A DNA stretch of 64,000 nt from Ructibacterium sp. Lineage in GTDB: Bacteria > Bacillota > Clostridia > Monoglobales > Monoglobaceae. The stretch covers positions 2,200-66,199 of the forward strand of contig JAZSKV010000054.1 in the NCBI GenBank assembly GCA_045534975.1. Reading direction: 5' to 3'. The notes beneath the pieces were generated by a model. That model worked only from the letters and a program-made list of their open reading frames with translations. It had not been told where the DNA came from and searched no databases. Positions within the stretch are counted from its first letter, which is position 1, and each line of letters begins with the position of its first letter. The translations under genes were made by a program, and so were the position numbers. Positions 1 to 2,228 of this stretch are shown one piece after another.

Positions 1-163
1 GTTCTTCACCACCTGACCGATGTACTTCCGCTTTCAAATATTTTCTTTGCTCCCAGAATGGAAGCCACACTTCTACAATAAATACACAAAGAAAAAATAA
101 AATTAAAACTACTAAAAAAATTGGTATCACAAGATCCCATGCATCATTTACTGTATACTCCAT
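1..163 (-). CDS. Small membrane protein, partial (runs off the window start)
   Basis: Hand translation from ATG at 163: MEYTVNDAWDLVIPIFLVVLILFFLCVFIVEVWLPFWEQRKYLKAEVHRSGGEE..., one hydrophobic helix, GAGGGTG RBS upstream; below the ORF-track cutoff. Confidence 0.6.
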   Translation of the reverse strand, partial: MEYTVNDAWDLVIPIFLVVLILFFLCVFIVEVWLPFWEQRKYLKAEVHRSGGEE

Positions 164-200: not shown

Positions 201-743
201 TTAATTTCCTAATTTGTCTACTGTTCTTTTATGTAAGTTATTTAATAGCATCTGTGCGATATCTTTATCATCCCATACAACATAGTCAATCACCACGGAT
301 ATGATAGTATAAATAAAGATATTGGCTTGTTCTTTGGTACACCCAAAGGTCTGCAAAAGTCTCTTTGCGTATTGTTCATAAAAAACTCTGAATTCCCTTG
401 ACTTACCGCGCATCCGTTCTCCGTAGAGAGGACTTGTTGTAATCTGCACTGCAAGCCGAAGTTCTTCCTTATATTGATCCACTTCGTCTAAAAATGTTTC
501 GAAATACCTTTCTATACTATCGGTATGTGCAAAGGTGAATTCCAAAAGAGCCTCAACAACCTTAGAAAGGCCATATTTCCCCGCGCTAATCCAAATCTCA
601 TCTTTGTTTTCAAACCAATGATAAAGACTGCTTTGGGCCAATCCCGTTAACCGACATAAGTCTCCAATAGAAGACTTGGATAAACCGGTTCTTAAAAGAT
701 ACTGCCACGTCATTTTTATAATCTCTTCTTTTTTACTGGACAT
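201..743 (-). CDS. TetR/AcrR family transcriptional regulator
   Basis: N-terminal TetR HTH (SSIGDLCRLTGLAQSSLYHWFENKDEI), 180 aa. Confidence 0.9.
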   Translation of the reverse strand: MSSKKEEIIKMTWQYLLRTGLSKSSIGDLCRLTGLAQSSLYHWFENKDEIWISAGKYGLSKVVEALLEFTFAHTDSIERYFETFLDEVDQYKEELRLAVQITTSPLYGERMRGKSREFRVFYEQYAKRLLQTFGCTKEQANIFIYTIISVVIDYVVWDDKDIAQMLLNNLHKRTVDKLGN

Positions 744-844: not shown

Positions 845-1124
845 CACATAATTTGCATTATGTGGGAAAGTTATTTGATTTTACTGCAAAAACTTTATTG
901 ATTATAGCAAAAAATTATGCAGTTGTCAATCTTATTACATAGGGAAAATAAGTTTTCAGCATAATGACAAAAAATGAGCATAGCAAACCAGACCGTTTGT
1001 TAAAAATGATAACATTACGGTCCTAAAACCATGTTTTTTTTATGTCAAATGTGCTTTTAATATTTGCATATCTGTAAATTTTCATAATGTCCTCTCTTTT
1101 GTGCAACATAATGCAAATTATGTG
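845..1124. mobile_element. Candidate invertible DNA segment bounded by 19-bp inverted repeats (dif-like recombination sites)
   Basis: 845-863 CACATAATTTGCATTATGT is the exact reverse complement of 1106-1124 ACATAATGCAAATTATGTG; each site has palindromic arms around an asymmetric 6-bp spacer; adjacent to a tyrosine recombinase. Confidence 0.75.
901..929 (-). promoter_or_regulatory. Consensus sigma-A promoter inside the invertible segment, facing the TetR gene
   Basis: Minus strand TTGACA (929-924), 17 bp, TATAAT (906-901), with extended -10 TG. Confidence 0.85.
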
Positions 1125-1287
1125 GTTTTTTATTTTTCAGTACCGTGATGTCAAGTTTTGCATCTGCCTTTGATGAATTTTTTCGCTTTTGTTGTAAAAA
1201 TCATATACCGGTCTGTTTTTACTTCATCTTGCGACGCAACACCATTTGAGCAAAAAACCTGACTCATTTTGACATTGAATATTAACT

Positions 1288-2127
1288 TTAGCACCGAAGA
1301 AGTCCGAGTTTTTGTAATTGTTCTAAGTGTACTTCGCCGTTTTCTATCGTATAAATTCGTGTCGTATTAACGTTTGCATGACCGAGAATGTCAGCAAGTC
1401 TTACAATGTCTTTTTGCATAGAATAAAATGTTCGGGCAAAAAGATGCCTAAAATTATGGGGAAAAACCTTGCTTTTTGCCACATTAGCACTTCTGCATAA
1501 TTTTTTAAGCATCTTCCATATAGAACTCCTGTCGAGTGCCTTGCCACTCCTGGTTACAAAGACCGAACCACTTTCTATATGCTGTTTCTTGATATATCCC
1601 TTTAGCATTTTGCATAGTTGCCTTGGCAAAAAGACTTGTCTTATTTTACCTTTACAGTTTATCCGCGCCTGTCCGGCCTTAACTGCTTCACAGGTGACAT
1701 ACTTTAATTCAGAAATTCTAAGTCCTGTACTCCCTATGGTCTGCATTAAATAATAAAGCCGTTCATTTCTTCTATTTTTGGCTGCTGTCAATAGCCTTTC
1801 ATATTCGGCTTTTGTCAGTTCTTTTTCTTTATCCGCAAAAATCTGTCTTTGAATTTTTAAAGTTTTCACTTTAAATTCATTCCATTCCATAAAGGCAAAC
1901 AACGCATTTAACGACGACAACATTGAGTTGACACTTTTAGGTGCATAGTTTTCACAAATCTTCTTTTTATAATCAAGCACTGCTAATTTGTCAACTTCTT
2001 TATTCCCGAGCCATTCTCGGAAAAATCGAATATCACGCATATATTTTTCTATTGTGTTGTCACTTTTTTCTTGTTCATATAGATATAACCTGAATCTGCT
2101 TACATTTTCGTCTGTAATTTTCCTCAT
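1288..2127 (-). CDS. Tyrosine recombinase/integrase (XerC/XerD-like, 279 aa)
   Basis: Catalytic set intact: TGLRISE (R), KGK, HNFRH (HxxR), LGH, TRIY (Y). Confidence 0.93.
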   Translation of the reverse strand: MRKITDENVSRFRLYLYEQEKSDNTIEKYMRDIRFFREWLGNKEVDKLAVLDYKKKICENYAPKSVNSMLSSLNALFAFMEWNEFKVKTLKIQRQIFADKEKELTKAEYERLLTAAKNRRNERLYYLMQTIGSTGLRISELKYVTCEAVKAGQARINCKGKIRQVFLPRQLCKMLKGYIKKQHIESGSVFVTRSGKALDRSSIWKMLKKLCRSANVAKSKVFPHNFRHLFARTFYSMQKDIVRLADILGHANVNTTRIYTIENGEVHLEQLQKLGLLRC

Positions 2128-2185
2128 TCTCTCAACTCCTTTTCATGATTTTAGTTTATTATATCCATAATGAAAATTCTTATAT

Positions 2186-2228
2186 AAAAACAAGGACATG
2201 CCGCTGATTAACAAGCGATATGTCCTTG
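2186..2228 (-). terminator. Terminator-like hairpin upstream of the recombinase
   Basis: Minus strand CAAGGACAT-ATCGCT-TGTTAATC-AGCGGC-ATGTCCTTG followed by TTTTT. Confidence 0.6.

Follow-up and report, generated by a model that had tools for sequence, protein, structure and literature searches.

Phase variation is far less understood in gut Firmicutes than in Bacteroides. In Escherichia coli, the fimS switch is a segment of ~300 bp that carries inverted repeats and an outward promoter, is served by the adjacent tyrosine recombinases FimB and FimE, and controls a surface-structure operon; synapsis is assisted by accessory sites within the segment (IHF, Lrp). In C. difficile, the single recombinase RecV acts on several distant switches that have different repeats, and one of these, cmr, varies a transcription regulator system (cmrRST), an example of the phase-variable regulators already known. 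The C. difficile cwpV switch is the subject of PMC2784873. Xer-like invertases are described in Mollicutes, namely Xer1 at vpma of Mycoplasma agalactiae (PMC2268961) and XerC of Ureaplasma (PMC3599477), and the single-recombinase systems XerA/dif, XerH/difH, and XerS/difSL are reviewed in PMC5357621. For the defined gut community hCom2, the available text of PMC11892184 describes inverton group 139 as 33 invertons of ~250 bp in 17 strains, 32 of the 33 in Clostridia. Nearly all of them have a tyrosine recombinase within 5 kb and are linked to invertase group 35, and the same text reports reads in both orientations and shifts on passage, Intestinimonas butyriciproducens and Clostridium sp. D5 being examples.

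Here, we describe a locus in a window of 64 kb, the whole stretch of DNA that was analyzed, whose positions are used throughout. On comparison of its sequence with those of related loci, the region 845-2127 is very probably a self-contained invertible-promoter cassette that is run by the adjacent recombinase and was assembled in the ON orientation. Its invertible segment is bounded by a perfect 19-nt inverted repeat at 845-863 (CACATAATTTGCATTATGT) and 1106-1124 (ACATAATGCAAATTATGTG), with 242 nt separating the arms. Each copy belongs to a core in which the arms ACATAAT and ATTATGT are palindromic around an asymmetric 4-nt centre, TTGC in the left site and GCAA in the right; because the arms are palindromic, the relative orientation of the two cores is set by the centres alone. 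The distal core recombination site, on the cargo side, reads CACATAAT-TTGC-ATTATGTG (845-864), and the proximal core recombination site, on the recombinase side, reads AACATAAT-GCAA-ATTATGTG (1105-1124). Neither core is assigned a strand, and the core-to-core distance is 260 bp. The motif ACATAAT-N4-ATTATGT occurs just these two times in the 64-kb window, even when two mismatches are allowed (0.39 expected), and a scan of the whole 1.32-Mb genome at up to one mismatch found no further copy beyond the 845/1105 pair. The bases flanking the window cores are tc/gg, versus ca/gg in the family mode. A literature search with the core sequence returned nothing but primer coincidences.

The 242-bp segment between the cores is noncoding, without a credible ORF, and holds the switch promoter, TTGACA-17-TGcTATAAT (901-929, minus strand). 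This promoter matches the consensus at 12 of 12 positions, has an extended -10 TG, and is the sole 12/12 match within positions 1-2500. It reads outward and leftward through the distal core toward the TetR gene, which defines the ON orientation, the one orientation seen in this genome. No second assembly of the strain exists: the 90% cluster of the window recombinase (P0001) has one member, on one contig, and its nearest relatives are at most 82% identical. On the other side, a spacer of 163 bp (1125-1287, no strand), against a family median of 17 bp, separates the proximal core from the recombinase stop codon; G007, the closest relative, has one of equal length. A lone half of the family palindrome discussed below, ACCGGTCT, lies inside the window spacer at 1207-1214 and is perhaps left over from an earlier segment.

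The presumed invertase is a 279-aa tyrosine recombinase of the Xer clade (1288-2127, minus strand; Phage_integrase, PF00589, E=1e-27). All the catalytic residues (R137, K161, H224, R227, H250, and Y259) are present, and in an alignment they are invariant across 15 homologs. The best profile matches are XerA (135.4 bits against a cut-off of 220), XerD (133.9/329.6), and XerC (114.5/335), followed by XerS (64.3/267), with every Xer score far under its cut-off; models of FimB/E-type invertases also match far under their cut-offs (E=1.6e-8 and 6e-7). The closest solved structures are of archaeal XerA-type, XerD, and XerH proteins, among them 4a8e (XerC-like, of the archaeal XerA type; E=2e-24). 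A genuine XerD, which scores 332.2 bits and passes the cut-off, and an XerC-like gene are found elsewhere in the genome (contigs C87 and C43). Because the host has its own XerD and XerC-like gene, the window recombinase is an extra, dedicated enzyme. Overall, the anatomy laid out in an earlier note on this DNA holds: the 19-bp inverted repeat is perfect over all 19 nt, the sites said to be dif-like are so and the adjacent recombinase falls in the Xer clade, the perfect extended promoter lies at 929-901 on the minus strand and faces TetR, and the tyrosine recombinase described as intact is a complete ORF that ends 163 bp from the right site.

Directly upstream of the recombinase gene, a terminator-like hairpin (CAAGGACATatcgct...agcggcATGTCCTTG, then TTTTTAT; 2184-2228, minus strand) probably shields the gene from transcription running on from guaA. 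A tandem 19-bp direct repeat, ATTTTACCATAAAAATATA / ATTTTTCCATAAAAATTTA (2262-2299), sits between this hairpin and the guaA terminator (2304-2342); it overlaps weak promoter-like sites and may serve to regulate expression of the recombinase. At another locus of the family, L109, a gene for a 130-aa recombinase fragment (L109:4420-4812) lies between the intact recombinase and its switch, the latter starting 481 bp past the stop codon, and is evidence for duplication and decay inside cassettes.

The first gene downstream of the switch encodes a TetR-family regulator of 180 aa (201-743, minus strand; Pfam TetR_N, E=6e-4, below the cut-off). The second is represented in the window by its 3' part (1-163, minus strand) and encodes a single-pass membrane protein; this is the small membrane ORF that had been noticed earlier at 2-163, where it is cut by the window start, and it amounts to 82 aa in full on the contig (C69:2114-2362). 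A gap of 246 bp separates it from a gene, outside the window and in the same direction as TetR, that runs from C69:1868 to the contig start and encodes at least 622 aa of a secreted protein that has a signal peptide and beta-helix-like repeats. This large gene is probably cotranscribed with TetR. TetR homologs of 57-67% identity occupy the same position in G007, G039, G047, G001, G015, and G054, and in relatives small membrane ORFs homologous to that of the window come after the TetR gene. The order from TetR to a large secreted protein recurs in eight relatives (these six, G022, and G016), in six of which a small membrane ORF is called between the two; G039 and G047 have additional genes at this place. 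The large secreted proteins of the eight relatives range from ~430 aa, where a contig end cuts the gene, to >1500 aa. Because TetR comes first in a secreted-protein operon, the switch would vary a regulator-led surface-protein operon. In this respect, we depart from the earlier note, which took the varied product to be a transcription factor and not a surface antigen: TetR leads an operon that ends in a giant secreted protein.

Across the family, the first cargo gene is a TetR homolog in 17 of 66 loci and another gene in 49. The domains found in these other first genes include YpsA, SPFH, zinc-ribbon, cohesin/dockerin, BspA-LRR, SLH, Big_2, and subtilase, as well as Eco57I-methylase, acyltransferase, and GGDEF, and Wzy and VTC also occur among the non-TetR cargo. 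By a simple heuristic, nine of ten genes that follow TetR have signal peptide-like N termini, and the tenth has a hydrophobic N-terminal stretch. The cargo of the family thus consists mostly of surface or secreted proteins.

When 60 related genomes were searched at the DNA level, recombinase homologs with nucleotide identities of 64-76% turned up in several families of the order, and in this search the stretch with the proximal site was often better conserved than the recombinase gene. In each fetched locus whose contig runs through the switch, two ACATAAT-N4-ATTATGT sites come after the recombinase, with centres that vary between loci and are reverse complements within each. The recombinase has >595 relatives in species-representative genomes, metagenome-assembled genomes (MAGs) of gut and rumen Clostridia labeled in their records as, among others, Oscillospiraceae, Monoglobaceae, Feifaniaceae, and Lachnospiraceae; in metagenomes, the cassette family accounts for at least 8000 protein clusters. 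The relatives are phylogenetically nonindependent, and counts among them therefore overstate the number of independent events. Two or more sites are present in 68 of the best 80, and the centres of the partners are reverse complements in 68 of 68, with 38 distinct centres represented. The first site lies a median of 17 bp past the recombinase stop codon in the best 80, and the median inner segment is 233 bp long. Such covariation of the centre with that of its own partner is a prediction of a tyrosine recombinase site pair and of no operator model, and together with the co-occurrence of recombinase and sites it points to the window recombinase as the presumed catalyst of inversion.

Comparison of relatives reveals both orientations. 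The inner segments of L008 (G039) and L011 (G047) are 51% identical in the forward direction and 91% identical when one is reversed, and their flanks are 93% identical forward; flipping the L011 segment in silico lets L008 and L011 be aligned over their full length. The inner segments of L010 and L013 are likewise 49% identical forward and 69% reversed, and in L043 and L044 an identical promoter sequence occupies mirror positions, with its strand switched from one locus to the other. The promoter of G007 is in the orientation opposite to that of the window. In 51 family loci, a single strict promoter is always directed outward, 40-130 bp from one core; it faces the recombinase (OFF) in 39 and the cargo (ON) in 12, and two further loci carry both. 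Assembly breaks at the switch are the usual symptom of a mixed-orientation region, and we find that in 8 of 10 single-site loci a contig end cuts the sequence within 204 bp of the site and that in G003 one site sits at the end of a contig and its partner at the start of a different one. The earlier note had proposed an ON/OFF invertible promoter captured in the ON state, and had named as checks a search for the site motif near homologous recombinases and a comparison of related genomes for both orientations. The paired sites in 68 of the best 80 loci, the covariation of their centres, and the pairs L008/L011, L010/L013, and L043/L044 all agree with that proposal. The antisense geometry that it had drawn for the OFF state proves to be a rule of the family, as the 39 loci assembled OFF show, and from such a position the OFF promoter might damp the recombinase by antisense transcription as a form of feedback.

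Several variants of the cassette were encountered in the same comparison. Contigs with an identical recombinase (P0003, 81% identical to that of the window) include three OFF copies and two copies of a segment-deletion allele, and no ON copy was found among them. At L111:2057-2074 and L114:1657-1674 (compare L112:1880-2136), which come from independent samples, the invertible segment is exactly absent, and the one remaining site, ccACATAAT-GCAA-ATTATGTag, joins both outer flanks as a promoterless "scar" allele. This allele fits either of two origins: a deletion across the left arms, which are direct repeats of each other, or recombination of sites aligned by their palindromic arms. A third core with the same centre is present in L005, L011, L012, and L022 and in 13 of the 68 two-site loci (for example, L053, L057, L065, and L104); it stands 32-34 bp, or approximately three helical turns, from one of the paired cores, on the cargo or the recombinase side, and permits two nested inversions. 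The switch at L028:3850-4284 is longer, with a 399-bp inner segment and strong outward promoters at both ends, and may act as a toggle instead of switching ON and OFF. We also considered the 4-nt centre as a strict per-genome barcode and rejected this idea: G047, with switch loci at C7:5186-5433, C3:3148, and C54:6176, has at least two loci that share the CAGC centre, so centres are not strictly unique per genome. Recombination between the G047 loci may be possible.

A second regularity of the family is the spacing of its elements. Across 100 distinct pairs, core-to-core distances cluster at ~209, 220, 230, 241, 252, 262, 273, 283, 294, and 304 bp, a periodicity of 10.5 bp (Rayleigh R=0.71, n=100, against at most 0.34 in jittered controls), and the 260 bp of the window falls within the 260-264 class. 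Among 77 site pairs with a single strict promoter, 52 contain an internal palindrome, AGACCRAT-N16-19-ATYGGTCT, whose centre lies mostly 75-77.5 bp upstream of the start of the -35 element and is phased at 10.6-10.8 bp to both cores. In the window, this element takes the form AGACCGT-N20-ACGGTCC (990-1023, no strand), diverged from the family consensus; from its centre, the proximal core is 108 bp away, the distal core 152 bp away, and the start of the -35 element 77.5 bp downstream. All the window distances (260, 108, 152, 77.5, and 74.5 bp) fall in the modal phased classes of the family. In the genomes of five relatives, the palindrome is confined to the switches, and it is therefore part of the cassette and not of a global regulon. 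We infer that it is an architectural or accessory site for looping the 260-bp segment. The explanation that we rank second, a weak intrinsic terminator or insulator, has to contend with a loop of 12-20 nt and a weak U-tract (GUUUG), with arm positions 6, 7, 9, and 10 that covary without G-T intermediates, and with the helical phasing of the element to DNA sites; these three properties together argue for a role at the level of DNA.

Other readings of the whole locus must be weighed against an inverting cassette. The suggestion that the palindromes are operators of the adjacent TetR repressor, which would regulate itself without any recombination, is encouraged by their form as 20-bp near-palindromes and by the plausible roadblock position of one of them between the promoter and the TetR gene. 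We nevertheless consider it scarcely credible and rejected it: the sites co-occur with the recombinase, and because 49 of the 66 loci that have both a site pair and a recombinase carry other cargo, with TetR first in just 17, the sites are not TetR operators. This suggestion also leaves unexplained how partner centres stay complementary amid variation between loci and how homologous segments come to lie in opposite orientations. A dif site for dimer resolution, or att (IMEX-type) sites for the integration and excision of an element, would instead account for the resemblance of the core to dif (CATAA-N6-TTATG), for the ranking of XerA, XerD, and XerC models and of XerA, XerD, and XerH structures as the best matches of the recombinase, and for the presence of the cassette before unrelated cargo in different genomes, which means that it has moved somehow. 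Such functions are very improbable here, however, given Xer model scores so far under their cut-offs, the true XerD and XerC-like gene elsewhere in the genome, and a segment that contains a promoter and a palindrome alone. The dif reading was rejected on the separate XerD and on the presence of the site as two inverted copies 260 bp apart, and the att reading on the reverse-complementary centres of all 68 pairs, with no direct repeats, and on the gene-free 190-399 bp that they enclose. Because the window sites are inverted, lie 260 bp apart, and enclose no gene, recombination between them would yield inversion, not excision.

It is also unlikely, if less so, that the locus is a genuine family member that is now locked, with a promoter fixed ON and no flipping at a meaningful rate. 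Several observations lean this way: the genome has a single such locus in a single orientation, the atypical spacer with its lone half-palindrome suggests a past rearrangement, the internal palindrome has diverged, and locked variants do exist in L111 and L114, which have lost the whole segment and kept a single site. Against this stand an intact recombinase ORF with every catalytic residue, two cores that are still identical across 19 nt, distances that all remain in phase, and the promoter of G007, which shares the 163-bp spacer and has the opposite orientation. We thus favor an active invertible-promoter cassette, which presumably flips in this strain.

In the mechanism that we propose for this cassette, the 279-aa recombinase would bind the dif-like cores at 845-864 and 1105-1124 and exchange strands within the asymmetric centres TTGC and GCAA; because these centres are reverse complements, the 242-bp segment would invert. 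Synapsis at 260 bp would be aided by a fixed architecture, with the cores whole helical turns apart and the palindrome at 990-1023 in phase with them. In the ON state, the promoter at 929-901 would drive TetR, then the 82-aa membrane protein, and probably the secreted protein of at least 622 aa. In the OFF state, it would point into the 3' end of the recombinase gene, leaving the TetR operon without a promoter and the recombinase perhaps damped by antisense transcription. A bolder version, which we hold to be possible but doubtful, joins three further ideas into a rigid, self-regulating "invertasome." The switch-specific palindrome and the strict phasing could be an accessory architecture undescribed for any Xer-derived system; the OFF promoter, usually ~40-130 bp from the recombinase stop codon, could silence the recombinase and so make the OFF state stable (39 OFF, 12 ON); and TetR, first in the commonest type of cargo, could act in trans on other loci by analogy with UpxZ in Bacteroides. 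If TetR does act in trans, a single flip would reprogram expression beyond its own operon.

For this genome, the invertible cassette means that the operon of TetR, membrane protein, and giant secreted protein is probably expressed heterogeneously. More broadly, the family fronts surface proteins, glycan genes, a restriction-modification methylase gene, and regulators. The combination of fixed arms, a pairwise-matched 4-nt centre, whole-turn spacing, and a palindrome would permit the prediction of switches in MAGs without reads, and the compact set of recombinase and sites, with many naturally orthogonal centres, is on offer for synthetic biology.

Among known systems, the locus shares with fimS a short segment, inverted repeats, an outward promoter, an adjacent tyrosine recombinase, and the ON/OFF control of a surface operon. 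It differs in that the recombinase is of the Xer clade and single rather than one of two, in that the cores are dif-like with a variable 4-nt centre, and in that the recombinase gene lies upstream, codirectional with the cargo and convergent with the OFF-state promoter. Inversion by a tyrosine recombinase and membership of the class Clostridia are shared with the RecV switches of C. difficile, and the regulator cargo of cmr resembles TetR; unlike the RecV arrangement, each cassette of the window family has its own recombinase immediately upstream, and its arms are common to all. The Mollicutes systems also recruit Xer-clade recombinases for phase or antigenic variation through inversion at short sites, but they shuffle promoters among lipoprotein multigene families, whereas the cassette in the window has two sites, a promoter segment of its own, and an ON/OFF output. 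With XerA, XerH, and XerS, the locus has in common one recombinase, near-palindromic arms, and a CATAA...TTATG inner core; inversion between two inverted copies takes the place of the dimer resolution at one site that those systems perform. Judged by size, taxon, and recombinase linkage as set out in the available text on hCom2, the window family is probably inverton group 139, for which that text describes neither covariation of the centres nor helical phasing, an internal palindrome, or TetR-led cargo. The mechanism is that of a fimS-type ON/OFF inverton with a Xer-derived recombinase, a kind already known, in a cassette family that is very common in gut Clostridia yet little described. What our analysis adds is the set of rules that the family follows: a free but matched centre, helical phasing, and a switch-specific palindrome.
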